NCBI GenBank assembly: GCA_016794365.1
Contig: JAEUKB010000025.1
Location: 116,693-180,692 of the forward strand
Direction of reading: 5' to 3'
Source: Myxococcales bacterium
GTDB lineage: Bacteria; Myxococcota_A; Polyangia; Palsa-1104; JAEUJZ01
DNA length: 64,000 bases
Below, piece by piece: positions 3,401-37,854 of the stretch. Each line of letters opens with the position of its first letter. Position 1 is the first letter of the stretch. The notes beneath the pieces were generated by a model. The model did no database searches. It was not told the origin of the DNA and saw only the letters and a program-made list of their open reading frames with translations. Both the position numbers and the translations under genes were made by a program.

Positions 3401-3559
3401 GGAGGGCTGCTGATCTCGCAGGTGCTGACGTTGTACACCACGCCGGTCATCTATCTGTACATGGGCAAGCTGGCTGCGCTGTTTGGATCGAAGCGACCTT
3501 CGGACTCCGATTCTGATTCCGATTCTGATTCCGATTCCGATGCGGAGGCTGCGACATGA
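407..3559 (+). CDS. RND family multidrug efflux permease (AcrB/MdtB-like), first of two tandem paralogues; C-terminal (SD)7 tail
   Basis: 1050 aa, about 12 TM segments and two large periplasmic loops. Conserved AcrB-family blocks are present (TISTGFVVDDAIVMIENIERY; GIVKKNAIMMIDFALE). The start overlaps the adaptor stop (ATGA) and the stop overlaps the next permease start (ATGA at 3556-3559). The tail SDSDSDSDSDSDSD is encoded by a tandem GAT/TCC repeat at about 3497-3545. Confidence 0.9.
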   Translation: MSISEPFIRRPVATTLLMIGVLLAGLAGYRELAVSALPQVDYPTIVVSTTLPGASAETMSSAVTTPLERQFGQMPSLSQMTSVSSFATSQITLQFQLDRSIDAAEQDVQAAINAASNLLPRTLPAPPTYSKSNPADTPILTLAVRGAHLPLAQVHDYADSILAQKISQVSGVGLVTLNGSQKPAVRVQVDPVTLAGSGLSLEDVRSTIVAANVNQPKGNIDGVRQDYALSTNDQLDRAESFRPLVLAYKNGAVIRLQDVAQVVDGVENVQLAGWADSQRAIILNVQRQPGANVIQVADRVKALLPQLRSSLPQGVEVSILSDRTETVRASVEDVQFTLLLTIGLVVGVIYVFLRDLRATLIPGVAVPLSLIGTFGVMYLLGYSLNNLSLMALTISTGFVVDDAIVMIENIERYIEAGEKPLQAALKGAQQIGFTIMSLTVSLIAVLIPLLFMTGLIGRLFREFAVTLSVAIAVSAILSLTLTATMSAHILRAHPAQKIGQPLHGNWLSRLFERGFSGLLSIYDRGLQWVLAHQLLTLLATIATVVLTVYLALVIPKGFFPQQDTGLLVGVSEAAPDASFQRLAEGQQRLVDVLLSDPDIERVASFIGADGTNLTPNSGRMTVTLKPREHRHRTAEQIILQLRPKLSEVTGVSLYLQPVQDLQLDSRVSRTQFQYTLEDSDLDELRAFTPKMLHKLRTLPELLDVASDYQEGGLQLDLTIDRDTASRLGVLPQAIDDVLYDAFGQRQISTIFTQLNQYRVILEIKPELGKNVDTLRSLYVRSQTGEAVPLSMLVTPTERSAALSVNHQGQFAAATLSFNTAPGVALGDAVAAIRRAEQEIGMPQGVHASFQGAAQQFQSALESEPLLILAAIVTVYIVLGVLYESYIHPITILSTLPSAGVGALLALLICKIDFSIIALIGIILLIGIVKKNAIMMIDFALELERDQAMTPEESIYRACLLRFRPIMMTTMAALLGGLPLALGSGAGSELRRPLGISIVGGLLISQVLTLYTTPVIYLYMGKLAALFGSKRPSDSDSDSDSDSDSDAEAAT

Positions 3560-9323: not shown

Positions 9324-9447
9324 AAACACCTCACAAAGCCTATTGCGGACCCTGGCTGCTGCATCGTCGGTCCTCACGTACTTTTGCGTACGCTCCGGTC
9401 CTCCTCTTTGCTTCCAGGGTTCCTCAGGACGGTTTTGTGAGGTGTTA

Positions 9448-18071: not shown

Positions 18072-21000
18072 ATGCAGTACTTCCAAGAAGCTCGGCAAAG
18101 GGTTGTGCGACAGGGTCTGTGGCTTTCGCTGTGGGCGCTGTGGCTGCTGACGCTACCTACGGGGCTGTCGGGCTGTGGGCCGAAGCTGCAAGCACAAAGC
18201 TCGGTGGCCAGCGTCGAGGTGGTACGGACGCCGATCGAGCTAGATGGATCGCTTGGACGGCACGCGGTGGTCGGCGAAGAGCGGGCGATGGCGGGCCAGA
18301 AAATCCAAGTCGCCGAGCGCGCGCAGGCGCTGCTTCATCACGATGTCGGTGCGCGGATTCTGATCGACGGTGGCAGCGAAGTCCAAGTGACCGAGCAGGG
18401 TGTGCAGCTTTCAAAAGGTCGGCTGTGGGTGGACGCTCGCAGCGGTGGACGGATCGAGATCACGGTCGCTGATCAGACGCTGCTGTCTCAAGCGGCAGGC
18501 TTTGAAGTGACGAGCACGGCTGGTTCAGCTCGGCTGTCGGTGGTGCGCGGCGAAGTGGCGTATGTGGGAACGGGTCGCGGTGTGGTGCGCGCCGGGGAAC
18601 AGCTGTCGATGGGCGGTGGGGCTCCGAAGCTGGCTCCGGTGGCGCTGTGGGAAGACTGGACGGGCGGGCTGGCGTGGCCGGATCCGCGCGTGCAAGGTGG
18701 AGCGCCAGGGCTCGGGGAAGTCGGTGCGCGCAAGCCGGGCAGCCTGGGGGAAGCGCGCTTTCCGCTGTCGCTGCATCGACTGGAAGTGCGTGTGCGCATC
18801 GAAGACGATCTGGCGATTACCACGGTCGAAGAGACGTTTTTTAACCCGGCGGAATCGACGCTGGAAGGCATCTTCCGGGTGCGGCTGCCCGACGATGCGA
18901 TCTTGTCTCGCTTTGCGATTGATCGGCACGGACGCTACGTCGATGGCTACGTCAAAGAGCGCGAGACGGCGCGCCGTGACTACGAATCGAAGGTGTACGA
19001 AGGCTCGACGCACGATCCGGCGCTGCTCGAGTGGGAAGCGCCCGGTCAGTTCAAGGCGCGGCTGTATCCGCTGCCGCCGGGATCGACGCGCAAGGTCTTG
19101 TATCGGTACAGTCAGTGGCTGCCGTTTTCGGGTCCGGGTCACTCGCTGCGGACGTATCGCTTCCCGATGGGCGCAGCGGCGGGAGCGGGCGCACCGATGA
19201 TCCAAGAGCTGGACATCGAGGTGGACGCCAGTCGGGCCGAGGCGAAGGAAGTGCGCTCGGGTCTGGGATCGGTGCTGTCCGAAGATCGCAAGCGCGTGGT
19301 GATGCAGCGCACCGACTATCAGCCAAGCGCGGATCTGGTGGTCGAGCTGGTCGGGGCTGCGCGTCCAGAGGATGTCGCGCGGGTGTATCGGGTGTCGCAC
19401 GAAGATCCACCGAGGCCGGGTGGACACAGCGGCAAGCCGGAAGATGACTATGTGCTGATTCGGACGCTGCCTGCGCCGGTTCCTTCGTCGAGTGAGCGTG
19501 TCCCGATCGATCTGGCGCTGCTGGTCGATGTGTCGGCAGCCACCGACGCGACACACCTGGCGATGGCCAAGACGCTGGTGGAGTCGGTGCTGCGACGGCT
19601 GGGGCCGGACGATCGGGTGGTGCTGCTCGGGGCGGACTTGGATGCGCACGCGGTGGGGGCCAAAAAGACCGGCAAGCGAGAAGCGGTGGCGGCTCCGACG
19701 TGGCAGACGCTCGGGCCGGAGACAACGAATCAGCTCTTGGAGCAGCTCGGTCGGACAACCACAGGTGGTGCGACGGATCTGGGCAAGACGCTCAGCCAAG
19801 CGGCGGCGATGCTCGATCCGGCGCGGATTTCTGCGGTGCTGTACGTCGGTGACGGCAAGCCGACGGTCGGTGAGCTGTCCTTGCCTGCGCTGCGTGAGCG
19901 ACTGGCGAGCCTGCCGCAGCCGCTGCGTCTGTATGCCGTCGGAATTGGCGATGAAGCAAACCTAGAGCTTCTGTCGGGACTGGCGGCGGTGAGCGCAGGA
20001 CAGGCATTCCGCGTCGGAGATCGCAGCGCAGCGGCAGAGACAGCGCTGCAAGTGGTGACGCATGTCAGTCGTCCGGCGGTCAGCAAGCTGAAGATCGATG
20101 TCGGTAGCTCGCTCGATCGGGTCTACCCTCGTGAGACGGTGGCAGTGCGCGCGGGTGAGCCGCTGTTTGTGCTGGCGCGACTGAAGAAGCGACTGCCGTC
20201 GAAGATCACCGTCGAAGGCGTGCAGCTCGGACAGCCGTTTCATCGCTCGTATCGACTGGAAGGTCACGGCATCGACAACACGTCGGATCTGCGGCTGCGC
20301 TGGTCGCAGGCTCGGCTGCATCAGCTCCTTGAGAGCGGTGCTACCGTCGAAGAAGTGGCAGAGCTGGGCGTTCGTCAGAACCTGATCACGCCGTATACGT
20401 CGTACTACGTGCCGAGCGAGGAAGAGGTGTCGCTGCTGGAGCGTGCGATTCCCGAGGTTCGCGCCGCTGGCTGTAGCAGTCGCTCGCCGATGTCGTTTAG
20501 CAAAAATGAGTCGGCTCCGGCGAGTGCGTCATCGCCCGTGGTGGTGTCGGCAGACAATGCGCCACCCGCGCCGCCGGTCGAAGGCAAGATGGGAAGAGCC
20601 GATCGTCGTCGTGCCAAAGACGACAGCGAAGAAATGAGAGAAGGCGCAGAGTCTCCGAAGCTGGCGCTGGAAGCGGCAAAGCCGACGGCTCCGAGTGCAT
20701 CGGCGGCGGCCATGCCGTCTCGGGACGAAGCGTATGCCGAAGCGCCAGCGCCCGTGGAAGCGCCCGCGAAAAAAGCCAAGCGTGCTCTCGCCAAAGAAAA
20801 AGCGGCGTTTGATGGCGATGATTCTCCGAGTGACTCGGGCGGAAGCGCGTTCGGTCTGGTCGGCGCAGGCAAAGGCGGCGGCGGAACGGGCGAAGGCACG
20901 ATTGGACTTGGCGCGATCGGCACCATCGGTCATGGCTCGGGCCGTGGCTATGGCAGCTACGGTGACAAGACTGTCTCGCCGAAGGGACGACGCAACGTCA

Positions 21001-22745
21001 GCCCGGACGTAGCGCTCGGGGTGGCGGAAGTGCGCGGCTCGCTCGACAAAGAGATCATTCGTCGCATCATCCGTCGCCACATCAACGAGGTGAAGTTTTG
21101 CCAAGAGCGTGAGCTTGTGCGCGGCGCGGCCAGCGTCGGACGGCTGCTCGTGCAGTTTACCATCAGCGTCGATGGCTCGGTGATTGCGAGCATTGTGCAA
21201 AGCTCGACGGTGGGCAATCCGGTGCTAGAGCAGTGCGTCGCGTCGGCAGTTCGTCGCTGGGAATTTCCCAAGCCGCGTGGTGGCGTGGTGGTTGTGACGT
21301 ATCCGTTTACCTTCAGGGGCGACGGCGTGAGCAGCGGCTATCAGGAAGTGGCGATTCCGTCGGTGGAAGTCTCGACGCCGGATGTGACGGTGGTGGTCGG
21401 GATTGTCACGCATCGGCCCAAAGGCTGCTCGGCAGCGTCGATGCAGCCGCTGGATGAGCGACGACAGCTTTGGAAAGAGCGCCTGTCGGGCAGCGTGCGC
21501 AGAGCGATGGAAGTGCTGCAAGACGCTGAGCATGGCTGCGAGGTCCGTCGCTGGTCCGAGCGTCGGGAGCTGCTCAAGCTGATGCTACGCAACGTCGGTG
21601 GCCCGCGCGGCATGGTCGAGCTGTACAAGAACTTGTCCGAGGAGCCCGATGATCAGGAATACCTGCGTCACTCGATCCTTGGAGAAGTGCGCAATCCGCG
21701 TGATCTGCGAGTGGTGTACGACGGGCTGGGTCTGGGCGACGAAGAGCGCGCGCTGCTTTCGCAAGAAGTGGTGGCCAAGGCCAAGTCGCTGCCGGACAAG
21801 CTGGCTCGGCTGACGGATCTGCTGGCGAAGTGGCCCGACGATCTGCGGCTGCGGATCTTGCGAATGGAGACGGAAGAATCGCTCGGTGAAGCGGAAGCGG
21901 CGCGTCGGACCGCAGAAGAGATTCGCATCGATCCGTATGCGGATGCTCAGGCGCGGACGGCGGTTGGTGAGCTGCTCGTGCGGCTCGGGGATGATGTCGG
22001 TGCGCGACGGGCGTTTTCAGAGATCGTCGAGTTTGCGCCGCAAGATCCACTGGCGCGGCGACGGCTGGGCGATCTGTATCGGGCGCACGGGCTGTTCGAT
22101 GAAGCGTACCGTCAGTACGAGACGCTGCTTCAGCTTCAGCCGGGGGACAACTCGGTGCTGATCCTGCTGGCAGCGGCGGCGGCGGGCGCGGGCAAGGTCG
22201 AAGAAGCGCTGGGCCTGGAAAAGCGCGTGGTCGGCGATGCAGAGCCGGGCAGCGAGAGCGGTCTGGCCAAGGTGGCGCTGCTGTGGTCCAGCCTGCGACT
22301 GCTGGAGCTGCGTGATCAGGCGCGGACGCTCAAAGGCAAGGACACGACGGAAGAGCTGGCGCTTTTGAACCTGCGGGCACGACAGAGCGGCATCGAGGGT
22401 CTGTATCGTCCGGTTCGGGTGTTTCTGTCGTGGGCTCATCCGGAAGCGGACCTGGATCTGCGGGTGGCGGCTCCGGGTGAGTCGGCGGGTCCAGCGATGG
22501 ACTTGGCGCCGCAGTTTGGTCTGCTCGGCTGGCACAGCGACAAGGCTGCGTCGTCGCGCGGAGAATACGTGATTGAAGTGCGTCGGCAAGACCGCGCTCG
22601 GGCGATTGGCTACGACGTGGTGTTGGAAGTGGTGGTCGCCGAAGGTCAGAGCGACGAGCGGCTGCTCAGTAGCAAGTTCAGGATGGCGGGCGAGCTGGAC
22701 TCGCGACGCTTCCTGCTTCGAGACGGACGGCTTTTGCCCCAGTAA
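18072..22745 (+). CDS. giant multidomain lipoprotein: FecR-like domain, VIT domain, vWA domain, low-complexity Ala/Pro/Lys region, TonB_C-like domain, C-terminal TPR region
   Basis: 1557 aa. Lipoprotein signal (LTLPTGLSGC). FecR-like block (ILIDGGSEVQV...SKGRLWVDA...AGFEVTS). VIT block (FRVRLPDDAILSRFAIDRHGRYVDGYVKERETARRDYE...ARLYPLPPGSTRKV). vWA block (IDLALLVDVSAATD...VLYVGDGKPTVGE). TonB_C-like block (IIRRIIRRHINEVKFCQERE...GRLLVQFTISVDGSV...AVRRWEFPKP). TPR-like helical repeats at the C-terminus. Confidence 0.75.
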   Translation: MQYFQEARQRVVRQGLWLSLWALWLLTLPTGLSGCGPKLQAQSSVASVEVVRTPIELDGSLGRHAVVGEERAMAGQKIQVAERAQALLHHDVGARILIDGGSEVQVTEQGVQLSKGRLWVDARSGGRIEITVADQTLLSQAAGFEVTSTAGSARLSVVRGEVAYVGTGRGVVRAGEQLSMGGGAPKLAPVALWEDWTGGLAWPDPRVQGGAPGLGEVGARKPGSLGEARFPLSLHRLEVRVRIEDDLAITTVEETFFNPAESTLEGIFRVRLPDDAILSRFAIDRHGRYVDGYVKERETARRDYESKVYEGSTHDPALLEWEAPGQFKARLYPLPPGSTRKVLYRYSQWLPFSGPGHSLRTYRFPMGAAAGAGAPMIQELDIEVDASRAEAKEVRSGLGSVLSEDRKRVVMQRTDYQPSADLVVELVGAARPEDVARVYRVSHEDPPRPGGHSGKPEDDYVLIRTLPAPVPSSSERVPIDLALLVDVSAATDATHLAMAKTLVESVLRRLGPDDRVVLLGADLDAHAVGAKKTGKREAVAAPTWQTLGPETTNQLLEQLGRTTTGGATDLGKTLSQAAAMLDPARISAVLYVGDGKPTVGELSLPALRERLASLPQPLRLYAVGIGDEANLELLSGLAAVSAGQAFRVGDRSAAAETALQVVTHVSRPAVSKLKIDVGSSLDRVYPRETVAVRAGEPLFVLARLKKRLPSKITVEGVQLGQPFHRSYRLEGHGIDNTSDLRLRWSQARLHQLLESGATVEEVAELGVRQNLITPYTSYYVPSEEEVSLLERAIPEVRAAGCSSRSPMSFSKNESAPASASSPVVVSADNAPPAPPVEGKMGRADRRRAKDDSEEMREGAESPKLALEAAKPTAPSASAAAMPSRDEAYAEAPAPVEAPAKKAKRALAKEKAAFDGDDSPSDSGGSAFGLVGAGKGGGGTGEGTIGLGAIGTIGHGSGRGYGSYGDKTVSPKGRRNVSPDVALGVAEVRGSLDKEIIRRIIRRHINEVKFCQERELVRGAASVGRLLVQFTISVDGSVIASIVQSSTVGNPVLEQCVASAVRRWEFPKPRGGVVVVTYPFTFRGDGVSSGYQEVAIPSVEVSTPDVTVVVGIVTHRPKGCSAASMQPLDERRQLWKERLSGSVRRAMEVLQDAEHGCEVRRWSERRELLKLMLRNVGGPRGMVELYKNLSEEPDDQEYLRHSILGEVRNPRDLRVVYDGLGLGDEERALLSQEVVAKAKSLPDKLARLTDLLAKWPDDLRLRILRMETEESLGEAEAARRTAEEIRIDPYADAQARTAVGELLVRLGDDVGARRAFSEIVEFAPQDPLARRRLGDLYRAHGLFDEAYRQYETLLQLQPGDNSVLILLAAAAAGAGKVEEALGLEKRVVGDAEPGSESGLAKVALLWSSLRLLELRDQARTLKGKDTTEELALLNLRARQSGIEGLYRPVRVFLSWAHPEADLDLRVAAPGESAGPAMDLAPQFGLLGWHSDKAASSRGEYVIEVRRQDRARAIGYDVVLEVVVAEGQSDERLLSSKFRMAGELDSRRFLLRDGRLLPQ

Positions 22746-22754
22746 GAGGTCGCC

Positions 22755-25700
22755 ATGAAGAGCGTTGGGCAGTTTCGCAACAAACAAGTCGGCGGCAAAT
22801 ACATCCTTGGCTGGACGCTGTCGGCGTCGCTGTGGATGACGGGCTGTCACAAGCCGCCGTCGCAAGAACCAACGGTTGCTTCGGTGGAAGCCAGCCGCGA
22901 TGGCGCGACGATCACGACGGGCAAGACCCAGCTTCCGATTCAGCGCAGTCAGCGCTTGGTTGCGGGCAGCGTGGTGACGACGCCGCCGGGTGTTCGCTCG
23001 TCGCTGTATCTCGATGCGGGGGCGTGGGTGCTGCTCGATCAGGGCAGCGTGCTCAAGGTGCTCGACAAAGGCATCGAGGTGCAGAGCGGTCGCGCCTGGA
23101 TCGATGCGCGCGTCGGAACCGATGTCCCGGTGATGGCAGCGGGAATTGCTTTGACGGCGCAGCGGGCGGGCCTGGCGGTGACGATGACCGAGGGTGGCGC
23201 CAAGATCTACTGCGCGAGCGGTCAGGTTGGCTGGAAAGGCGCGGGCAAGTCGGGACGGCTGGAGTCCGGCTTGACGCTGCTTGTCTCGGGCGGAGACGCG
23301 AAACAGACGGCGCAGGCGCTGTGGGATGACTTTACGCTGGGACTGGCGGAACCGGGACCGCTGCGGGCGCTGGAACCGGCGGGCGTGGGACAGCTAACGG
23401 CGCGACCTGCGACGGGAGTTGGTACGGCGCGGACGCCGCTGATTGTGCGTGCGCACGACGTGAGCGTGTCGATTGAAGGCGACATGGCGACGACGACGGT
23501 GGAGCAGACGTTCTTTAACCCGCGCTCCGAGTACCTAGAAGGTCTGTACACGGTGCGTCTGCCGGAAGCTGCGATCTTGGAACACTTCGCGGTGGCCGAT
23601 GGGGACGCTGCGCCGCGTCGTGGCTCGGTCCTGCCGATGGATCGTCAGGGCAGCGGCGTGTCGAGCTTTTCCGCGAACCTGGAGTGGGCGGGCTCCGGTC
23701 GCTATCGCGGTCTGATTCGCAACATTGCGCCGGGTAAGGTCAGGAAGGTGGTGCTGCGCTACCGTGAGTGGCTGCCGCACATTCCCTACGCTGACGCCGT
23801 GCGCCGTACCTATGTCTACCCGATGGGACAGAGCGCGCAGATGCAAGCGGGCTCGGTGTCGAACTTGGGAGAGTTTTCGCTGTCGGTGGACGTGGCGCAG
23901 GCGCAGGCAGCGTCGCTTCAGGCCGGGCTCGGTGCGCAGGTCGAAGGCTCGATGGTGACGCTGCGACGCAGTGACTTCAAGCCGACGGCGGACTTTGTGC
24001 TCGATCTGATGGACGGCAAAGAGCGCATCAAAGATCGGCTGGTGGCGTTCCGAGGAGAAGCCGTCGAGGATCAGCGCTATCTGCTGGTGCAGCCGACGCC
24101 AGCGGCGGGTAAGCCAGCCAAGGGTCTTGATGTGGTGCTGCTCGTCGATGTGTCGGCGGGAACGGATGAAGCACGACTGAGCCTGGGCAAGAGCGCGGCG
24201 CAAGCACTGCTCAAGCGACTGACGCCCGAGGATCGGGTCGCGGTGGTGGCGACTTCTCTCGGGGCGGCGACGCTGGGCAGTGAAGCGATGGCCCCGGCGA
24301 CCAAAGAGCGAATCGAGCAGCTCGATGCCCAGCTTGCGAAGCAGACTCCGGGCGGAGCGACGAACCTTCAGCAGGCGTTTCTGCGCGCGGTCGAGCTTCT
24401 GCCGCGTGGGAAAGGCGCGGTGATCTACATTGGCGACGGGCGTCCGACGGTTGGTGCGCTGACCCCGAATGAGCTAAGAGCGCAGCTTCAGCAGCTTGGG
24501 GATCTGCCTCGGTTCTTTGCGGCGGCGGTGGGCAGCGACGCGAATGTGCCGCTGCTGGAGTCGCTGTGTCACTCGGGAACTCGCTCGGGCGTGGTGCGGA
24601 TTGAAGACGCGCCGGATGCGTCGCGGGCGGCGCTGCACCTATTGGAACGGGTGGCGCAGCCGAGCCTTTTGGGCGTCAAGGTAGAGCTGGGCGAAGGCGC
24701 GGATGTGGTCTATCCCGACGAGCCCGTGACGATCGAAAGTGGCGATTCGCTGACGGTGGTGGCCAGGCTGCGCGCCGATCGTCCTCTGCCATCCAAGCTG
24801 GTGCTGCGCGGGCTGCGCGACGGACAGCCGTTTGTCGAGCAGCGCGATCTGACGGTGCGCTCGATCGAAGATGGCGGGGACTTGGCTCGTCGCTGGGCGC
24901 TGTATCGGATGCAAGGTCTGTTGGAGCGTGCGTCGGGCAAAGAAGCGATCTTGGACATCGGCAAGCGCTTTCAGGTGGTGACGCCGTGGACTGCGATCGT
25001 CGTCGCTCCGTCGGGTGGGGAAACGTATCGTCCCTTCGTGGGCGAGCTAGAGGCTGGACAGTTTGTGCCTCCGTCGCTGCGTGGACAGGCTCCACAGGAC
25101 TCGGCGATCGTGCTGGAATCGGGCGTTTCGACGCAGAGCATGCGTCCGGTGAGCATCGGTGAGATGTATGTGCGAGCGCTCAAGTCGCAGAGCAGTGCGG
25201 CGCGGCTGTGTTACGAGCGACGGGCGGCGGGAAATCCGGGCCTGTCGGGTCGCGTCGAGCTGAAGCTGAAGATCGGAATCGATGGGCTGCCCAAGGATGT
25301 CAAGGTCGCGTCTTCGACGCTGCGCAACAAAGAGATCGACGACTGCATCGAGCGCGCGCTGCTGGCGGTGAAGCTGCCGGTGTCTCCCGACGGGAAACCG
25401 CATGATGTGGACTACGCGCTACAGCTCAATCAAAAAGAGCATGACGACGGACCGCAGCGCTGTAGTGCGGCGTCGCGGGCGTATCTGCAAGTGCGCCGAT
25501 CGCTGTGGCGCGAGCGTCTGTCGAGTCATCCCGGCGTCGAGGGTGCGATGACGGTGCTGCGCGAAGCCGAAGCGCGCTGTGAGCTGAAGACCTGGCTGGA
25601 TCGGCGAGCGCTCGTCGATTTGATGCGTGTTCACGTCGGTGGAACCGCGCAGCAGGTCGATCTGTTCCATCGCTTCGACGACAGTGAGTACGCGCAGGAA

Positions 25701-26840
25701 GTTCAGTCGCATCTGCGTCGCGAGATCTTGCGAGCGGTGCGCACGGAAGCGGACATTCGGGCGGCGCAGAGCGGGCTGGCTCTCGACGGTGGAGTCGATG
25801 AAGCGCTGCTGACGCAAGAGCTGAAAAAGACCAAAGGCGTCGCCGAGCAGCTCGCGGTGATTCGTCGCTTTTTGGCGCTGCTACCGGACTCGCTGTCGCT
25901 GAAGCTGAAGCTGCTGGCGCTGCTGGAAGAAGCGAGCGCCGAAAAAGGACTGGCAGCGACGGCCAAGCAAGCGCTGTTTGGGGAAGCGAACCGGCTCATC
26001 GAGTCGCTGCGCGTCGATCCAGGGGCCGATGCTGCGGTTCGTCAGTCCGTCGGTGAGTATCTGATCCGTCGCGGCGAAGGGGCCGAAGGCGCGCGGGCGC
26101 TGTCCGAGATTGTCGAGTTTGCTCCGTTCGATCCGTGGGGACGGCGACGGCTCGGGGATCTGTATCGCGCCCATGGCTTTTTCGACGCTGCGTATCGGGA
26201 ATATCAAGGGCTGAGCTGGCTTTTGCCGCAAGATGACAGCGTGCTGCTTTTGCTGGCGGATGCGGCGGCGGGCGTGGGTCGTACCGACGAAGCGCTGCGA
26301 CTGACCAGTCGGGTGGCGGAAGCGGTGGGCGCGCAGAAGTCGCAGAAAGGGGCTCCGGCGTGGGCGCGCGCGCTGTATGCGGTGCGGTGGGCGCGGCTCT
26401 GCGACGAAGCCCGACGAAAAGGCGATCAGAACCTGCTCGGCCAGCTTGGCGCACGCGGACGTAGCGACGGAATTTCCGGCTACGCAGGCCAGATGCTGGT
26501 GGCGGTGACGTGGTCGCATCCCGACGCGAAGCTTCAGCTCCAGCTGGTTCCACCGGGCAAAGGCAGTGAGCCGCAGCGGGCCAGCATCGCGGGCGGAGAC
26601 GTCGGCATCGAAGCGCAGCGCTACGACAAGGCGCAGTCCGGCGAGTGGCAGCTTCGCGTCATCAAGCCAAGCGTGGCGCTCGGGGCGGGCGAATACAAAG
26701 GCGAGCTGACGGTGCTGCTGTTTGCCGGAACCAAAGAAGAGACGATCCTGCGGCAGCCGATCGCCGTGAGCGCCGGTTTTTCGTCGGTGAAAGAGTTTTC
26801 GCTGCGCGGCAACGTGCTGTCGCCAATTCCCAGCAAGTAG
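22755..26840 (+). CDS. giant multidomain lipoprotein, paralogue of the upstream gene (FecR-like, VIT, vWA, TonB_C-like, TPR)
   Basis: 1361 aa with the same domain order. Lipoprotein signal (LWMTGC). Near-identical blocks shared with the upstream gene (EQTFFNPRSEYLEGLYTVRLPEAAILEHFAV; LVDVSAGTDEARL; EIVEFAPFDPWGRRRLGDLYRAHGFFDAAYREYQGL versus EIVEFAPQDPLARRRLGDLYRAHGLFDEAYRQYETL). Starts 10 bp after the upstream stop. Confidence 0.75.
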   Translation: MKSVGQFRNKQVGGKYILGWTLSASLWMTGCHKPPSQEPTVASVEASRDGATITTGKTQLPIQRSQRLVAGSVVTTPPGVRSSLYLDAGAWVLLDQGSVLKVLDKGIEVQSGRAWIDARVGTDVPVMAAGIALTAQRAGLAVTMTEGGAKIYCASGQVGWKGAGKSGRLESGLTLLVSGGDAKQTAQALWDDFTLGLAEPGPLRALEPAGVGQLTARPATGVGTARTPLIVRAHDVSVSIEGDMATTTVEQTFFNPRSEYLEGLYTVRLPEAAILEHFAVADGDAAPRRGSVLPMDRQGSGVSSFSANLEWAGSGRYRGLIRNIAPGKVRKVVLRYREWLPHIPYADAVRRTYVYPMGQSAQMQAGSVSNLGEFSLSVDVAQAQAASLQAGLGAQVEGSMVTLRRSDFKPTADFVLDLMDGKERIKDRLVAFRGEAVEDQRYLLVQPTPAAGKPAKGLDVVLLVDVSAGTDEARLSLGKSAAQALLKRLTPEDRVAVVATSLGAATLGSEAMAPATKERIEQLDAQLAKQTPGGATNLQQAFLRAVELLPRGKGAVIYIGDGRPTVGALTPNELRAQLQQLGDLPRFFAAAVGSDANVPLLESLCHSGTRSGVVRIEDAPDASRAALHLLERVAQPSLLGVKVELGEGADVVYPDEPVTIESGDSLTVVARLRADRPLPSKLVLRGLRDGQPFVEQRDLTVRSIEDGGDLARRWALYRMQGLLERASGKEAILDIGKRFQVVTPWTAIVVAPSGGETYRPFVGELEAGQFVPPSLRGQAPQDSAIVLESGVSTQSMRPVSIGEMYVRALKSQSSAARLCYERRAAGNPGLSGRVELKLKIGIDGLPKDVKVASSTLRNKEIDDCIERALLAVKLPVSPDGKPHDVDYALQLNQKEHDDGPQRCSAASRAYLQVRRSLWRERLSSHPGVEGAMTVLREAEARCELKTWLDRRALVDLMRVHVGGTAQQVDLFHRFDDSEYAQEVQSHLRREILRAVRTEADIRAAQSGLALDGGVDEALLTQELKKTKGVAEQLAVIRRFLALLPDSLSLKLKLLALLEEASAEKGLAATAKQALFGEANRLIESLRVDPGADAAVRQSVGEYLIRRGEGAEGARALSEIVEFAPFDPWGRRRLGDLYRAHGFFDAAYREYQGLSWLLPQDDSVLLLLADAAAGVGRTDEALRLTSRVAEAVGAQKSQKGAPAWARALYAVRWARLCDEARRKGDQNLLGQLGARGRSDGISGYAGQMLVAVTWSHPDAKLQLQLVPPGKGSEPQRASIAGGDVGIEAQRYDKAQSGEWQLRVIKPSVALGAGEYKGELTVLLFAGTKEETILRQPIAVSAGFSSVKEFSLRGNVLSPIPSK

Positions 26841-26888: not shown

Positions 26889-28352
26889 GTGCGGATGCCA
26901 AACTTCAAAGTCCCGGTCCTTTGTGTGCTGGCCCTCGTCGGCTGCACGAGTGAAGGACTTGATACCCTGGTTCCGCACTTTGATCCGCCCAGCTCGACGA
27001 CGCTTCCGTCGGTTGGGTCGCTGGTGCATGTCATCAACCTGGATGCCGAGCCGACGATTTGCTATTCCACCGACGGAACGAATCCCGAGTGGAACGGTGG
27101 AAGCTGCGCCAAAAAGCTCGATGAGAGCCGCGCGATCGCCGTGCCCGCGTGTGGCTTCAACCTGATCCGCATCGCTTGGCCGACGGGCAGCGACGAAGCA
27201 AACTACAAGGTAGAAAGCGAAGCCTGTCAGTCGAGCTGCGAGCCGGTCGTGCCGTGGCCCAACGGTGAGCTGGCCCAGGCCTACGCACGCTGGACCGACG
27301 AGGTAAAGTGCAAGCTCAACAACTGCCAAAATCCGTCGAGCACCGGCAACTGGTCCACAAGCTGTGACACGGGACAAGTGAGCTGGAACGTCAGCCTCAA
27401 CGGACTGCGCGCGATCAGCACGTTTACCTATGATTCCTGTGCGCACACCGTCACCATCGACGTCAGCGAGGGCGGCAAGCTGGTTCCGCGCAAGTTCACC
27501 TTGATCGTCACCGGCAAGCTGATTCAAGACACGGACTTCGACGGCAGCGGCAACGAAGGCGGCAACGTCACCATCGCGGGCGACTTCACCGGCAAGATCA
27601 ACTCGCGAATTGTCCTCGACAGCAAGCAGCGCAAGGGTGGAACCATCGACGCGGGCTGCTTAAGCGATCCGCTCGACGGCAAGCAGTGTGCGCCGGGCGG
27701 AGCGACGATTGCGTACAACTTCCCCGACTTTGGCTGTCGCGGCGGAATCTGTCCGGTCGCAGCATCGGGAACCTGCAAGCAGCCTGACACGGACAGCGAC
27801 GGTGTGCCCGATGACAAAGACAACTGTCCGATGCTGGCCAATACCGATCAGCTTGATGTCGATCGCGACGGTGTGGGCGACGAGTGTGACAGCGAGCCTG
27901 CGTTCGCGCTCTTGCGCTTCAAGGTGGGAAGTCGCTGTCTGACGCTGGGCACCAAAAAGCAGGTTCATTCGACCAGCACCTGCGAGCCGACGGACCCCAA
28001 GCAGCAGTGGCAGATGTTTCCGTCGGGAAATGCCTATGGATTTCGCAATCTCTCGACGGGAGAGTGTCTGAGCCAGAGCGGTGTGCTGGCGGGACCGTGG
28101 ACGGTGGTGACGGCTCCGTGTGATGGCACCGATAAGCAGCGCTGGAAGCTAGAGACCTATAACCAAGGCGGCACCGACGCGAAATATCCGCTGCGTATGC
28201 ACAACGTCGCCGAAAACTTCTGCATCTACACCGATCTGACCGGGCTGGTGTACGGGACGGCGCTCAACTGCGATCTGGCTGGAACAGAGTCCAATCGCAA
28301 AGTTGGTGTCTACCTGGGCGGAGCGTTTGACAAGGCTCCGTTCGTTCCTTGA
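26889..28352 (+). CDS. secreted lipoprotein with thrombospondin type 3 (Ca-binding) repeats and C-terminal ricin-B/QxW lectin-like domain
   Basis: Signal with Cys (VLALVGC). TSP3 motifs (DTDSDGVPDDKDNCPMLANTDQLDVDRDGVGDECD). C-terminal QxW-type repeats (KQQWQMFP, KQRWKLETY) on a beta-trefoil-like segment. Confidence 0.65.
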   Translation: MRMPNFKVPVLCVLALVGCTSEGLDTLVPHFDPPSSTTLPSVGSLVHVINLDAEPTICYSTDGTNPEWNGGSCAKKLDESRAIAVPACGFNLIRIAWPTGSDEANYKVESEACQSSCEPVVPWPNGELAQAYARWTDEVKCKLNNCQNPSSTGNWSTSCDTGQVSWNVSLNGLRAISTFTYDSCAHTVTIDVSEGGKLVPRKFTLIVTGKLIQDTDFDGSGNEGGNVTIAGDFTGKINSRIVLDSKQRKGGTIDAGCLSDPLDGKQCAPGGATIAYNFPDFGCRGGICPVAASGTCKQPDTDSDGVPDDKDNCPMLANTDQLDVDRDGVGDECDSEPAFALLRFKVGSRCLTLGTKKQVHSTSTCEPTDPKQQWQMFPSGNAYGFRNLSTGECLSQSGVLAGPWTVVTAPCDGTDKQRWKLETYNQGGTDAKYPLRMHNVAENFCIYTDLTGLVYGTALNCDLAGTESNRKVGVYLGGAFDKAPFVP

Positions 28353-28354
28353 TC

Positions 28355-28500
28355 CCCAATAGGAATCGGTTAGGAATCGATTGGGAATCGGTTGGGAATC
28401 GGTTAGGAATCGATTAGGAATCGATTAGGAATCGATTAGGAATCGGTTGGGAATCGGTTGGGAATTGCAAGAGGAATCGGTTAGGAATCGATTCCTCTGA
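28355..28500. repeat. intergenic tandem array of about 13 copies of a 10-bp unit (T/G)(A/G)GGAATCG(A/G)T, ending in a perfect 12-bp palindrome GGAATCGATTCC
   Basis: Direct reading: ataggaatcggttaggaatcgattgggaatcggttgggaatcggttaggaatcgattaggaatcgattaggaatcgattaggaatcggttgggaatcggttgggaattgcaagaggaatcggttaggaatcgattcctc. It lies between two convergent stop codons. Confidence 0.9.
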
Positions 28501-28508
28501 GGAGGACG

Positions 28509-30050
28509 CTACGCTTTGAAGGCGCTGGCGTCGGGCAGTCCGCTTCCGGCCAGATCGACTCCCATGGCGGTGAGGACACCCGAGAAGATGTCCGGCTCAT
28601 TGGGCGTGAGCTTGCCAACCTGCGGAGCGCCCGTGCGCGCATCAAAGCCGTAGGTCAGGGTGGTCAGTGGATCGATGCCGCCCAAGATGGTGTTGCCCTT
28701 GACCATCGGAGACAACAGGACAAAGCCGTTGTTCAGATCATGTCCGCTTCCGAACGTGGTGGCATTGTCGGGACGATTGCGGGTCCGGCCAAAGTCAGTG
28801 GCTACGTAGATCATGGTGCGATCCCATAGGCTCTCTCCCGTCGCTGTATCAAACGGCTCGGACTTGAGCAGCGTGATCAGCTTATCGACGGTTCCCATGA
28901 TCCGGCTCCACATAAACGCCTGGCCACTGCGGTGATCGTTGTGACTAAAGTCAAACGCGAGCGGCGGATTGTAAAGTCCTGCGCCACCGCCGAGCTTGAC
29001 GTTAAAGTCTGGACCGATCGTGATCGCAGAGGACACCCGATATTTGATGAGCAGGAATGCCAGCGCAGCTTGTCCTTGGAACGGATCGTTGAAGAAGTCA
29101 GGCAGGGCCAAGCGAACGCGCGCACCATCGGGAGAAGACGCAAGTCCATACTGAGTCAAGGGAACCTGCGGCGGCATGTCAGGAAGCACGTTCAGCTTGG
29201 TGATCAGATCCTGGGCTTCCAGCGTCGAGCTGGCTGCGCTCTGGGACAGCCAGCGCTGCATCGACACCGCATCGGAAAACGTCTGACCGAAGACAGACTG
29301 CGCGTGTAGCTCCTCTCGGGCTTTGCGAGCGAGGGACACCACGTCTTTGGTGGGGGCTCCTGTGATGCCGCGTGTACCATCCAGACCCAGCGGCCACAGC
29401 GACGGATTGGTCACGGTTTCTGGATACATTGCAGCCGGAAGGGATTCGTCTACACCGCGCTCTGTGTAGCCACCAAAGGCCATGTTGACGTTGGGAATCG
29501 GCATTCCTTGGCCAAACTCCAGCGCGACACATTCCTGAAGCGTGCGTCCTTTCCATGCGTTATTGCCAGTGATCGCACGCTTCTGCGCAATGACGTGGTT
29601 TACCGACGTACCGACCGAGGTCGCAACCAACATGTCATCCGCGTACTTTTTGACAAAGGCGAGCTGATCGGTGTTGACCGGAATCGGAATGCTCCCAATC
29701 TTGGATGAAGAGTGCCGGACTGCGCGAAACGGACTGCCCGCAACGCTCTGGACAGCGGTGTCTGGGAATGCGTTCAGTCGGATCGCGTTGGTCTTGGCTT
29801 CTGACTCCCGAACCGCGAGCATGCTGTCGATGATGCTGGCTCCTCCGGCTGCGGCAATCACCACCAAGAACTTGGGCTTGGTGCTCAGTGGATCGATGCG
29901 CGTGCCGAGCTTTTCGGCAGACTGCGGAGTCTCCAGTGACTGACGACATCCGATCAGGAAAGGAGACAGCGAAGTCGATCCTGCGGCCAAGAGTCCGAGC
30001 GCAGAGAGTGCCTCGCGGCGGGACAGTCTTCCGTTGTTTCGTAGTGACAT
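28509..30050 (-). CDS. DUF1501-family protein with twin-arginine (Tat) signal (sulfatase/phosphatase-like fold family, function unknown)
   Basis: Tat-type signal MSLRNNGRLSRREALSALGLLAAGS; length and sequence character (DFGRTRN..., GSGHD) as in DUF1501 proteins, which pair with DUF1800 proteins. Start taken at the Met preceding the RR motif. Confidence 0.6.
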   Translation of the reverse strand: MSLRNNGRLSRREALSALGLLAAGSTSLSPFLIGCRQSLETPQSAEKLGTRIDPLSTKPKFLVVIAAAGGASIIDSMLAVRESEAKTNAIRLNAFPDTAVQSVAGSPFRAVRHSSSKIGSIPIPVNTDQLAFVKKYADDMLVATSVGTSVNHVIAQKRAITGNNAWKGRTLQECVALEFGQGMPIPNVNMAFGGYTERGVDESLPAAMYPETVTNPSLWPLGLDGTRGITGAPTKDVVSLARKAREELHAQSVFGQTFSDAVSMQRWLSQSAASSTLEAQDLITKLNVLPDMPPQVPLTQYGLASSPDGARVRLALPDFFNDPFQGQAALAFLLIKYRVSSAITIGPDFNVKLGGGAGLYNPPLAFDFSHNDHRSGQAFMWSRIMGTVDKLITLLKSEPFDTATGESLWDRTMIYVATDFGRTRNRPDNATTFGSGHDLNNGFVLLSPMVKGNTILGGIDPLTTLTYGFDARTGAPQVGKLTPNEPDIFSGVLTAMGVDLAGSGLPDASAFKA

Positions 30051-30064
30051 CTGCTCTACTCCCT

Positions 30065-30706
30065 TTAGTAAAAGACCGACTCTGCGGAAGACAGGATTGC
30101 GAAACAGACAGACTGCATCCACGCGCGAGCGGGGGTCGCGTTGCCTGCTCCTTCGATGTCTTTGGCCAGACGAACGTAGCGCTCTAGCTCGTTGCGATAG
30201 GGATTGCGCAGAAACACCCGCTGCGTCATAAGTCCAATCACCCCACGGACTTCTGGACCGTCACTGTTTGCCAGCTTGTTTCCATCGAGCGGAATGCCGC
30301 GAAAGATCACCGCAGCAGATGGATTGTCTAGATCTGTGCTGACCCGCTGCGTACAAGCCGCCCATGCGACGCGCTCGACGACAAGCGGAGTGGTTGTGGC
30401 CGTCACCCCTGGTGTTTCATACAGACCTGCACCGTAAGGATCGACGCCTCCCAGCGCGACGTTATGAACCACAGAAGTACACGGATACATTCCCAGCTCC
30501 AGACAGACAGACTCTGGACGCAGCTCAAGTGCCGTCGCAAAGTCCGTGCTGAGACGCTCTGGACCTTTGAAGCGAAGGTTGCCGCGCGCAGACTTCGCAA
30601 CCGGAGAGGTCGGAAGCTCAAGGACATCGGGATCCGGTGGCGCTTGGGCTGGATCAGTACACGCTACGCACAGCGCAGCACAAAAGAGAAGTTTGTTAAG
30701 GCGCAC
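30065..30706 (-). CDS. small lipoprotein of unknown function, middle gene of the DUF1800-like/DUF1501 operon
   Basis: Signal MRLNKLLFCAALCVAC (lipobox). Overlaps the stop of the upstream gene and the start region of DUF1501. Confidence 0.5.
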   Translation of the reverse strand: MRLNKLLFCAALCVACTDPAQAPPDPDVLELPTSPVAKSARGNLRFKGPERLSTDFATALELRPESVCLELGMYPCTSVVHNVALGGVDPYGAGLYETPGVTATTTPLVVERVAWAACTQRVSTDLDNPSAAVIFRGIPLDGNKLANSDGPEVRGVIGLMTQRVFLRNPYRNELERYVRLAKDIEGAGNATPARAWMQSVCFAILSSAESVFY

Positions 30707-32684: not shown

Positions 32685-33845
32685 ATGGTGATTTATGGCC
32701 CTTATCCTCCATCGCCCGGTAGGACTCGGTGGCGCGTGCAGGTCTATGATCCGAAGACGCAGCGGAAGCTGTCTGTCACAGCGGAGTCGCAGGAGGCCGC
32801 GCTGGCCCTGCGCGAGCGACTGGAACATGAAGTGAAGCACGCAGCGCCTCTTTTGGTACACGATGCGATCGCGCAGTACCTGGAAGTGAAGCGCTACGAC
32901 ATCCGCTCTATGCAGCAGGTAGAAGATCTTGGACGGAAGCTCCGTCAGCTCTGTCCGAATGTCCCAGTGTCGTCGGTGACTCCGCAGAAAGCAGAGCAGT
33001 ACTACCTGGAAGCAACCCAGCAAAAGGGGAAGTTTGGTTCGCTGCGTCCGGCGACTCATCATGCGCGGCTGCGACTTGCGAAGGCCCTGTGGGCGTGGCT
33101 GATCCGTCGAGATCTGGCCAAGCACAATCCATGGGAGAAGGTCGAGCCGATTGGGAAAGTGAGCAGCGGAAAGCCTCAGCTCGATGAAGCGGATGCGCGC
33201 AAGCTGGATCGATTCCTGTTCACGCAAGCGGAAGCGGGAGATGAGGGTGCGCTGGCACTGCTTGTGGAACTGTATCTGGGACTGCGCTCATCGGAGGTTC
33301 TGTCTTTGACGGTGGGCGCCTGTCAGGGACAGACTGTCTACGTTCACGGAACGAAGACGAAGAACGCGCGACGGAAGCTGGCGCTGTATGGTCCCGTTGC
33401 GGAGCTGCTGGAAAGACACTGTAGGAATCGACCAGAATCCGAGCGCGTATTTGCAGCGAACCTACCCAAGCAGCCGAGCGCAAACTGGGCCTACAAGCGA
33501 CTGAAAAAGATCTGCGGACAGCTTGGGATTCCTTCCATCTGTCCACACAGCTTGCGCGGGCTACATTCTTCGCTGGCACTGGAAGCAGGAGCAACCACGC
33601 ATCATGTCGCGAAAGCGCTGGGACATGCCAGCTTTGGAACGACCGCGCGACACTATGCAAAGCCAGAGTCGATCGAAGTAGGAAGAGCCCATCGGTTCGT
33701 CGCTGCACTGCATGGTGATGCGCAGCCAAGCGTGGAAGCAGAGGACTCCCTTTCCCGTGCGCTGGCAGTGCTTCCCAAAGAGCTGGCGGCGCAGGTGATG
33801 GCGCAGCTCAAGCAGCGGCGTACATGTTCTGGCGAAGGTATGTGA
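32685..33845 (+). CDS. tyrosine site-specific recombinase (phage integrase family)
   Basis: C-terminal catalytic region with R...H-x-x-R...Y arrangement (LRSSEVLSL...; CPHSLRGLHSSLALEAGATTHHVAKALGHASFGTTARHYA). N-terminal SAM-like/core-binding region. Confidence 0.85.
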   Translation: MVIYGPYPPSPGRTRWRVQVYDPKTQRKLSVTAESQEAALALRERLEHEVKHAAPLLVHDAIAQYLEVKRYDIRSMQQVEDLGRKLRQLCPNVPVSSVTPQKAEQYYLEATQQKGKFGSLRPATHHARLRLAKALWAWLIRRDLAKHNPWEKVEPIGKVSSGKPQLDEADARKLDRFLFTQAEAGDEGALALLVELYLGLRSSEVLSLTVGACQGQTVYVHGTKTKNARRKLALYGPVAELLERHCRNRPESERVFAANLPKQPSANWAYKRLKKICGQLGIPSICPHSLRGLHSSLALEAGATTHHVAKALGHASFGTTARHYAKPESIEVGRAHRFVAALHGDAQPSVEAEDSLSRALAVLPKELAAQVMAQLKQRRTCSGEGM

Positions 33846-36708: not shown

Positions 36709-37569
36709 TTACTTGATCGGGATGGTCAAGCCTAGCTGTAGGCTCATCGGGGCTACGCTGATGGGGAAGCAGACCTCGCCGTCGAGCTTGTCGCAGTCGG
36801 AGCGTCGTGAGAGCACGATCGGCGTGATGATGGCGGCGGCGACTCCGCTGGCACCGACGGCGGCAAGTGTCCACACCCACCAGCGCGAATACCAGCGCTT
36901 TTCGGTCTTGAAGACGGCTTCTTCGCGGCGCTTTTGCTCGGGCTGGATTTCCAAGATAAGGTCGCGGTCGTACTGCTCACCAGCGACGGTCGCGATGCTC
37001 AGCGTCTGTTCAAAGTAGCCGATGCGACGGACGCGGACGACGTGCGGACCGGGACGCAGCTCCAGCTCCAGCGGGGTTTCTCCTCGGAGATCTTCATCGA
37101 CGAAGACTTGGGCACCGGGCACATCCGTCGCGACCTTGAGGATGGCGAGCAGCGGCGTAAGCTCGACTTCGACGGCAACCATTCGCCCTTGGATCGCAGT
37201 GAAGTCTGACGAAAACGTGGAATAGCCACGCCGAGAGAGCACCAGCTTGTGTGGTCCGGGCTCGATCGCGGTGCGCGGCGGTAGCGGAGTGATTCCGATC
37301 AGCTTTCCATCGAGTCGAACCTCTGCTTTGGGTGGCGCACCGAGGAGCGCGAAGGCAGTCTCGTTGGGCTTGGCTTCGGTCGGAATGGGCGCGCTCGATC
37401 GGGTCGCTGGCTGTTCGGCTGCGGGACTGGGCGACGACTCACCGGACTGCGCAAAGGCTGGCCGGACGGGCCAAAGCAGTGACAGCGCACAAGCCGCGAG
37501 GAGTCCAGCGTGGTGTCCAGACCGCCCGCGTGCGATCGTCTGCTCTGTCCGACCTGAGCGAGCGTGCAT
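36709..37569 (-). CDS. PEGA-domain protein with N-terminal signal and C-terminal transmembrane helix
   Basis: Two PEGA-like repeats (VRLDGKLIGITPL...IEPGPHKLVLSRRGYSTF; VFVDEDLRGETPLELELRPGPHVVRVRRIGYFE). C-terminal hydrophobic WWVWTLAAVGASGVAAAIITPIVL. Confidence 0.6.
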   Translation of the reverse strand: MHARSGRTEQTIARGRSGHHAGLLAACALSLLWPVRPAFAQSGESSPSPAAEQPATRSSAPIPTEAKPNETAFALLGAPPKAEVRLDGKLIGITPLPPRTAIEPGPHKLVLSRRGYSTFSSDFTAIQGRMVAVEVELTPLLAILKVATDVPGAQVFVDEDLRGETPLELELRPGPHVVRVRRIGYFEQTLSIATVAGEQYDRDLILEIQPEQKRREEAVFKTEKRWYSRWWVWTLAAVGASGVAAAIITPIVLSRRSDCDKLDGEVCFPISVAPMSLQLGLTIPIK

Positions 37570-37734
37570 TGCCTGTCATTTTGTCACGCGGGAGCGGTGT
37601 CTCACAAGCTGCTTGGTTCGGTGTCCCCACAGCGTGCGGAGATTTCCCAACGATTCCCAAGTCCGTGTCTGCGTGTGTTTCCAAGTGTGTCTGTCTGTGT
37701 TCATCGCTGTGCATTCCGTAGAGCGGTCCCTCGT

Positions 37735-37854
37735 GTGGTCCTTTGTGTGGTCTTTTATGTGGTCCTTTGTGTGGTCCTTTGTGTGGTCTTTTATGTGGTC
37801 CTTTGTGTGGTCCCTTGTGTGGTCCTTTGTGTGGTCCTTTGTGTGGTCCTTTGC
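37735..37854. repeat. 10 tandem copies of a 12-bp unit GTGGTCCTTTGT (variants GTGGTCTTTTAT, GTGGTCCCTTGT) in the divergent intergenic region between the PEGA gene and the type VI secretion cluster
   Basis: Direct reading of 37733-37856. Confidence 0.9.

Follow-up and report, generated by a model that had tools for sequence, protein, structure and literature searches.

A dispersed family of 11-bp tandem repeats, mainly between convergent genes, in a myxobacterial lineage

Dispersed arrays built from a single short unit, among them the Xanthomonas GGGAATC repeats, the cyanobacterial STRR sequences and clusters of REP elements, have been known for decades, and neither their origin nor their function is agreed upon. 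Simple sequence repeats (SSRs) with long units of 5–11 bp were reportedly described in large-genome bacteria by Mrazek et al. in 2007, and the cyanobacterial STRR heptamers are said to go back to Mazel et al. in 1990. Periods of 11 bp are also found in protein-binding arrays: parC of plasmid R1 consists of ten 11-bp ParR-binding repeats, and the pho-box and ArcA-type sites are 11-bp direct repeats. At the level of RNA, CsrB, RsmY and RsmZ, which are 100–350 nt long, display many GGA motifs between short helices and are encoded by free-standing sRNA genes that have their own promoter and terminator. In Xanthomonas campestris and X. axonopodis dispersed (GGGAATC)n repeats occupy approximately 185 loci per genome, 16% of them in convergent gaps, as arrays of 2–26 units, and Nostoc PCC 7120 has dispersed repeats of GGGGA(C/T)T (Rehm et al., 2015, PMC4692102). 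REP/BIME elements and REPINs are extragenic repeats of another type, of which the REPs, common wherever genes converge, have demonstrated roles in mRNA stabilisation and partial termination (Di Nocera et al., 2013, PMC3733652; Tobes and Pareja, 2006, PMC1525189; Harris et al., 2026, bioRxiv 10.64898/2026.03.23.713779).

The array considered here lies in the window, by which we mean the whole 64-kb stretch of DNA that was analysed. Tandem Repeats Finder (TRF) reports a repeat at 28360-28490 with a period of 11, 11.8 copies, 85% matches and a score of 169. From the TRF call, the core positions and the sequence, the direct-repeat array extends over 28360..28492 on the + strand and comprises 12 head-to-tail units of 11-bp period and consensus T-R-G-G-A-A-T-C-G-R-T, which start at 28360, 28371, 28382, 28393, 28404, 28415, 28426, 28437, 28448, 28459, 28471 and 28482. 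A preliminary description of the locus had reported approximately 13 repeats of 10 bp; the tandem array was recognised correctly, but the period is 11 bp and the units number 12, and the shorter period is a miscount since the unit formula given in that description itself has 11 positions. The exact core GGAATCG is present in 11 of the 12 units, at intervals of 11 bp. The remaining unit is degenerate and 12 nt long (TGGGAATTGCAA, 28459..28470, + strand, by unit parsing), with the core GGAATTG at 28461; it causes a +1 register shift in the array, and in the terminal hairpin its tail AAGA makes up the outer portion of the 5′ arm. The extended motif GGAATCGRTT occurs 12 times in the window, always within 28362-28495, against an expectation of 0.2, and this count was matched in none of 100 shuffles. 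There is only one 11-mer array in the window, and no further proto-arrays or inverted core pairs are found elsewhere in it. The earlier statement that the array is not a CRISPR holds: CRISPR arrays have repeats of 23–55 bp and unique spacers about as long as the repeats, whereas the 11-bp units directly abut, and no cas genes or leader lie nearby, the neighbouring genes being of VIT/VWA, lectin, DUF1501-like, PSCyt-like and integrase type.

As had been proposed, the array is flanked by two convergent genes, ORF 26889..28352 (+) and ORF 28509..30122 (−), and with its terminal hairpin it spans 28360-28498 and thereby fills the 156-bp gap between them. The upstream gene encodes a secreted-type protein of 487 aa with a thrombospondin type 3 repeat and a ricin-B lectin domain (Pfam), has homologues of 484–488 aa in Polyangium and Myxococcales, and ends with a TGA stop codon at 28350-28352, 8 nt ahead of the array. 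The downstream gene was identified from the ORF list and its homologues, which are named DUF1501/DUF1552 or Tat-signal proteins; a Pfam search of its product gave no match at E≤0.01. Its stop codon (CTA on the + strand) is at 28509-28511, 10 nt beyond the terminal hairpin, and translation probably begins some 24 codons into the ORF, as judged from homologues of about 513 aa. The homologues of both gene products assign the source organism to Polyangium-like Myxococcota. Upstream of the lectin gene, the block 18072-26840 encodes two neighbouring giant proteins of 1557 and 1361 aa with VIT and von Willebrand A domains, and its G+C content (63–67%) and GC skew are both above those found elsewhere in the window. 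An integrase gene of the tyrosine (phage) type, at 32685-33845, is 4 kb away from the array, and no link between the two was found.

The window contains other repetitive sequences. A second intergenic tandem array at 37725-37853 consists of 10.8 copies of GGTCCTTTGTGT, with a 12-bp period and 89% matches; it follows a GT-rich stretch (37640-37720) and separates two divergent genes, one for a PEGA-domain protein (36709..37569, −) and the one that opens a type VI secretion (T6SS) cluster (37874.., +). Its 12-bp unit bears no relation to the 11-mer and occurs in none of the 67 loci compared, and it is possible that this region upstream of the T6SS genes is regulatory or phase-variable. The T6SS cluster appears complete between 38453 and approximately 59000, with genes for TssK, DotU, an IcmF-like TssM, TssA, VipA/VipB, Hcp, a gp25-like protein and TssF, among which TPR and periplasmic-binding-protein genes are interspersed. 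A 24-bp tandem repeat of 3.4 copies is found at 5890-5970 within the second of two AcrB-family transporter genes. The first has a run of Asp-Ser codons, the hexamer repeat (TCCGAT)6, at its 3′ end (3506-3541), and this run carries the GGAATCG core on its opposite strand. Outside the array, GGAATCG occurs 46 times in the window where about 8–11 copies would be expected. These copies are coding and frame-biased, have neither flank conservation nor strand skew, and give a maximal-order Markov z of 0.8; since hexamer content accounts for the count, the excess is a codon-usage effect, and a genome-wide signal word of the uptake-sequence or Chi-like kind was rejected on this basis.

It had been asked with the first description whether the array belongs to a dispersed repeat family, and scans of genomes and metagenomes show that it does. 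With two adjacent units as the query, a scan of one genome per bacterial or archaeal species returned 11 loci, seven of which are on separate contigs of the Myxococcales MAG CALMML01; this MAG has at least eight arrays on seven contigs. A metagenome scan yielded 30 additional loci, about half of them on contigs of the same lineage with 57–61% G+C. Across CALMML01 and the matching metagenome contigs, 11-mer arrays of 2–12 units are present at no fewer than 11 unrelated loci. One of the loci, L006, is the orthologue of the window locus, with 88.3% identity over 6.4 kb and at least eight units in the same place. TRF analysis of approximately 200 kb of these loci found no other non-triplet tandem repeat, which argues against a general tendency of the lineage toward repeats of about 11 bp of any sequence. 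The array is therefore one locus of a lineage-specific, dispersed 11-bp repeat family, a long-unit SSR (VNTR) with the core GGA(A/G)TCG: its short units run head to tail with no spacers, it occupies many unlinked and mainly intergenic loci, and it varies between close relatives.

Some matches of the scans lie beyond this lineage. Arrays of 2–4 units in Dehalococcoidia, Lentisalinibacter, Lysobacterales, Azonexus and low-GC contigs look sporadic, and conservation across phyla was discounted because their contexts are mixed (5′ regions, coding sequence) and some two-unit matches are expected by chance. Three metagenome contigs of 23–26% G+C (L015 at 2989-3102, L036 and L041) have up to nine units of the 11-mer (TTAGGAATCGG / TTGGGAATCGG), which could be an independent expansion or belong to a different host. 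Human-gut phage contigs (L012, L016, L037 and L068-L070) contain three motif units, on the opposite strand, within the apparent 5′ end of a coding sequence (MLTKSSQAVSQPIPNRFPNDSQQKK...), and are unrelated to the myxobacterial family. A phage origin was rejected, since what matches in the human-gut contigs and in three viral contigs is a stretch of three units within a phage coding region. A plasmid origin was likewise rejected, there being no BLAST match in the plasmid collection, a search in which the low-complexity filter may mask the array.

The genomic niche of the family is narrow. At least eight of the ten classifiable loci are in convergent gaps and the other two lie between co-directional genes; a further locus, L009, is probably also in a convergent gap. 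The convergent pairs are lectin/DUF1501, YceI/inositol monophosphatase, GST/PEMT, chorismate synthase/RNase J (aroC/rnj), Ser/Thr kinase/FGE-sulfatase, epimerase/serine recombinase, unknown/LMW phosphatase and cystathionine-beta-synthase-like/unknown, and by Pfam the flanking genes are functionally unrelated. In the window, convergent orientation accounts for only 4 of 34 pairs of adjacent genes; even against a baseline of 25% convergent gaps, eight of ten corresponds to p of about 4e-4. The distance from array to stop codon ranges from −13 to 40 nt. Often the array itself provides the stop codon, as TAG in the unit or TAA on the other strand, and since 11 is not a multiple of 3 each reading frame is closed within three units. 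The G-rich strand of the array may tend to follow the locally G-rich strand: all loci with a skew above 0.03 agree, and three to four of approximately ten are near zero or opposite.

Copy-number variation, which had been put forward as a check on the nature of the array, is found between close relatives at orthologous loci. Near-identical contigs differ by 3 versus 4 units at the epimerase/resolvase locus, by 5, 6 or 7–8 at kinase/FGE, by 5 versus 7 at GST/PEMT and over a range of 9–11 at aroC/rnj, and the 12 units of the window compare with at least eight in L006. The sequence of the units varies as well. The spacers between cores are of GGT/GAT type in the window and of GAG/GGT type in L006, despite flanks that are 88% identical, and at aroC/rnj one clade is composed wholly of the GGAGTCG core while the others have GGAATCG. 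Units are thus homogenised within arrays by concerted evolution, and the units at the edges of arrays diverge more than those in the centre. Short-read contigs L039, L042, L048-51, L055 and L066-67 end inside arrays. That independent short-read assemblies stop exactly within arrays indicates that the repeat fragments assemblies of this lineage, and the true copy number of the arrays is probably under-reported. In practical terms the arrays break short-read assemblies, and they would suit strain typing in this lineage.

A comparison of occupied and empty loci bears on the origin of the arrays. At aroC/rnj, where L007 is the source of the AroC query and thus the reference, L007 and its relatives have 9–11 units, with 11 in L007 itself. 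Five to six units are present in L052-55 (AroC 87% identical), and L048-51 (86%) have an array of GGAGTCG type. In L056/57 (78%) the two genes overlap and a single proto-unit, GATCGGCTGGGAATCAAC (GAT CGG CTG GGA ATC), lies in the last codons of aroC, and in L058 (76%) the genes overlap with no unit at all. All of the aroC/rnj arrays start exactly at the ancestral GGGAATC word in the last aroC codons, so that this locus preserves the steps from no unit, through a proto-unit in the last codons, to a full array. At the window locus, L059/60 have the same convergent pair (lectin 72% and DUF1501-like protein 77% identical) across a 68-bp gap with no unit, whereas relatives at 90–93% identity carry the array, which places its gain within a narrow lineage. 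No proto-unit is seen in the outgroup of the window locus, and seeding at a pre-existing word is therefore documented at aroC/rnj only. In L061 the DUF1501-like gene (81% identical) faces an NAD synthase gene over an 18-bp gap (3058-3075) that contains TAGGAAT, possibly the remnant of an array that collapsed, or else a proto-unit where synteny breaks.

Conservation within the unit was assessed over 81 units, each recognised by at least 5 of 7 core matches. GGA is present in 81/81 units and TCG in at least 78/81, and position 6 is A in 72 and G in 9, so that the core is always a GANTC site. Variation is concentrated at positions 2 (A in 57, G in 21), 10 and 11. The best-conserved positions are those of the direct-repeat core, including the GG that would lie in the 'loop' of a hairpin. 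Every unit holds an 8-bp self-complementary segment, AATCGRTT, and in predicted folds neighbouring units are able to pair through AAUCGRUU; AAUCGAUU and AAUCGGUU are self-complementary in the RNA of the G-rich strand. This predicted inter-unit helix is broken at position 10 in 13/81 units and at position 11 in 19/81. Pairing that is lost while the core is kept would fit a sequence-specific reader better than a pure hairpin.

The minimum free energy (MFE) folds place a terminal stem-loop of 29 nt, a size within the REP range, at 28470..28498 on the + strand, with 13-bp arms (AGAGGAATCGGTT, 28470-28482, and AATCGATTCCTCT, 28486-28498) around the loop AGG (28483-28485). The perfect 12-bp palindrome GGAATCGATTCC noted previously is exact at 28484..28495, at the junction of the last direct unit and an inverted unit, and is part of this larger stem-loop; the ClaI site (ATCGAT) to which attention had been drawn is incidental, being found in A-variant units only. 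The 3′ arm is an inverted partial unit, and the 3′ flank of the window array matches the reverse complement of the array more closely than shuffled flanks do (p=0.0085). In L006 the terminal stem is 14 bp long, and its extension GAGTA/TACTC differs from the AGA/TCT of the window in a compensatory manner. The terminal inverted unit is significant in the window, L006, L003 and L013 and is supported at about four of ten independent loci, with stem-loops of 8–14 bp. The MFE of the array RNA is −60.6 kcal/mol (z −3.5) for the + strand and −42.1 kcal/mol (z −3.4) for the − strand. A simple terminator scan of the window gave nothing at the array. Beyond the terminal hairpin the sequence continues as GAGGAGG (+ strand) or UGCAAUU (− strand), with no U-tract, and an intrinsic (Rho-independent) terminator, in which a G+C-rich stem-loop leads directly into a U-tract, was rejected for the window array; at the sister locus L013 the hairpin is followed by TTTT. 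A role as a bidirectional terminator substitute is a live possibility, since hairpins are predicted for either strand, the array ends in an inverted unit and convergent gaps are strongly preferred. An Rfam search of the array gave no family match at E≤1. Ordinary hairpins are found in other convergent gaps of the window, and one of these hairpins has a U-tract. A long hairpin whose arms measure 16–17 bp (AACACCTCACAAAG ... CTTTGTGAGGTGTT), with A/T runs on its flanks, fills the convergent gap at 9324-9447 between a collagen-like gene and an LRR gene; it is either a small element of MITE type or a terminator for both directions.

The explanation that we favour, to which we give about an even chance, is a slippage-driven repeat family that is seeded beside stop codons and whose hairpins would act in a REP-like manner on transcript 3′ ends. 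Arrays would be seeded at GGAATC-like words adjoining stop codons and enlarge by replication slippage, which the self-complementary AATCGRTT may assist, and they would be retained only where expansion by 11 bp, a non-triplet length, harms no reading frame or promoter. The stacked hairpins and terminal stem-loop would probably then curb read-through or block 3′ exonucleases, a role proposed because both convergent transcripts must enter the array. Slippage alone does not account for the presence of the same 11-mer, spacer included, at many unlinked loci. The arrays might instead be a functionless by-product, a neutral or mildly selfish slippage-prone repeat that survives only in convergent gaps, where it is harmless, with template switching at the ATCGAT palindrome giving rise to the hairpins and terminal inverted units as a mutational side-effect. 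Both the number and the sequence of units do turn over quickly, relatives with the same gene pair do without the array, the ancestral aroC and rnj merely overlapped, the flanking genes have no common function and the window array has no canonical terminator signature; moreover, the Xanthomonas and Nostoc counterparts are still without a demonstrated function (PMC4692102). Such a repeat would, however, hardly be expected to show an identical unit at 11 or more loci, with GGA and TCG nearly invariant whereas positions 2, 10 and 11 drift, nor to persist at aroC/rnj across clades in which AroC is just 86–87% identical, and the compensatory differences between the terminal stems of the window and L006 also speak for function. 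We regard a by-product as possible, though somewhat unlikely.

The unit itself invites readings that depend on recognition of its sequence. The arrays could be phased protein-binding sites or clusters of GANTC methylation sites, with a putative lineage-specific DNA-binding protein reading the 7-bp core GGA(A/G)TCG every 11 bp, that is, about one helical turn per unit with a tolerant spacer of 4 bp, such that the block marks or insulates convergent ends as a roadblock or topological barrier. The conserved core and variable spacer would be expected of such an array, although the core conservation is in part favoured by the rule used for unit recognition; the sole variable core position is the N of GANTC, with one clade fully of GAGTC type, almost every array keeps a strict 11-bp register, and many units lose hairpin pairing and keep the core. 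We consider this distinctly unlikely, given that no candidate binding protein, partition gene or methyltransferase was found beside any array, that regulators do not normally bind convergent 3′ ends, that the window array contains a +1 phase shift and that copy number ranges freely from 2 to 12. A more specific form, in which the arrays are phased docking sites, their cores all on one helical face, for a lineage-specific protein that marks where convergent transcription units meet and forms a roadblock terminator or supercoil barrier, or are written by an enzyme that acts on the GA(A/G)TC core, is very unlikely; a sequence-specific enzyme that writes arrays on this core would explain the identical unit at unlinked loci. 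Alternatively the invariant GGA of all 81 units could act in RNA, about 12 Shine-Dalgarno-like motifs (AGGA/GGGA) titrating a CsrA/RsmA-type protein or 30S subunits as a CsrB/RsmZ-like sponge built into the 3′ UTR and transcribed on the GGAAUCG strand. RGG triplets lie in loops and linkers of the predicted fold, and the G-rich strand is the one that folds better (−60.6 versus −42.1 kcal/mol), since the frequent G variants retain G.U pairs. This decoy is nonetheless highly improbable: there is no Rfam family match, no promoter-like site near the array and no CsrA homologue in the 500 kb searched, which is far short of a whole genome, either strand is equally likely to be transcribed in convergent gaps, and no particular gene fixes the orientation of the array, which in L040 is antisense to both neighbours. 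Extremely improbable, finally, is a G-quadruplex-forming repeat that modulates transcription on DNA or RNA, as in Xanthomonas and Nostoc. The core GGGAATC is indeed identical to the heptamer whose dispersed repeats in Xanthomonas have been described as G4-forming (PMC4692102), but most units have AGG and not GGG, the loops between tracts are 8–9 nt long, four neighbouring GGG tracts never occur in the window, and numbers of 2 to 12 units show no preference for four.

Set beside the described systems, the family is an unusually clean case, with few loci, nearly all in one niche, and copy-number variation at the population level. It should therefore allow direct tests of how such repeats seed and spread and of whether they act as two-way structures at transcript ends. 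The array resembles CsrB, RsmY and RsmZ in its many GGA motifs, and differs from them in having neither an Rfam match nor a CsrA found in the 500 kb examined. With parC and the pho-box and ArcA-type arrays it shares a head-to-tail period of 11 bp, a conserved core with a tolerant spacer and about ten copies; those arrays, however, lie in promoters or beside par or rep genes on one replicon, whereas the 11-mer arrays are at 3′ ends scattered over the chromosome with no partner gene, and a plasmid-type iteron or parC centromere was rejected since no par or rep gene is present at any locus.

The likeness to REP/BIME elements is closer. Both are lineage- or species-specific, multi-copy and extragenic, lie close to or over stop codons, are enriched in convergent or unidirectional gaps (eight and two, respectively, of the ten loci here), vary between strains and sometimes form tandem clusters, with hairpins, predicted ones in the 11-mer family, that frequently contain G.U pairs. 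REP units, in contrast, are stem-loops of 20–40 bp, imperfect palindromes with stems of 5–13 bp, which carry a terminal GTAG or CGTC tag, mostly occur as inverted dimers and are associated with RAYT transposases, whereas the 11-mer is a direct repeat of 11 bp; window units read TTAGG or TTGGG, GTAG is confined to GAGTAGG variants found in L006 and L013, and no Y1 (IS200/IS605-type, RAYT) transposase is found among the window genes scanned.

The Xanthomonas and Nostoc repeats share still other features with the 11-mer family: a spacerless head-to-tail unit at many unlinked, mostly intergenic loci, a range from 2 to more than 20 units, variation in length and sequence between close relatives at the same loci, positions often less than 50 bp from a stop codon or overlapping it, inverted partners often nearby, unrelated neighbouring genes and no mobile element. 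Even the core is common to the Xanthomonas repeat and the 11-mer family (GGGAATC / AGGAATC), though their phyla are distant. The 11-mer family departs from the Xanthomonas repeat in its unit of 11 bp (core plus a CGRT-type spacer) instead of 7, its 8-bp self-complementary segment and its approximately ten loci, of which about 80% are convergent, as against approximately 185 per genome and 16%; it also departs from the class of Rehm et al. in its Myxococcota host and in lacking the G4 geometry of at least four G3 tracts with short loops. The view in the preliminary description that arrays of this kind are not a described feature is thus overturned by the Xanthomonas and Nostoc repeats (PMC4692102) and by REP/BIME elements between convergent genes (PMC1525189, PMC3733652), and the array resembles these known bacterial extragenic repeats more than it does a new kind of element.
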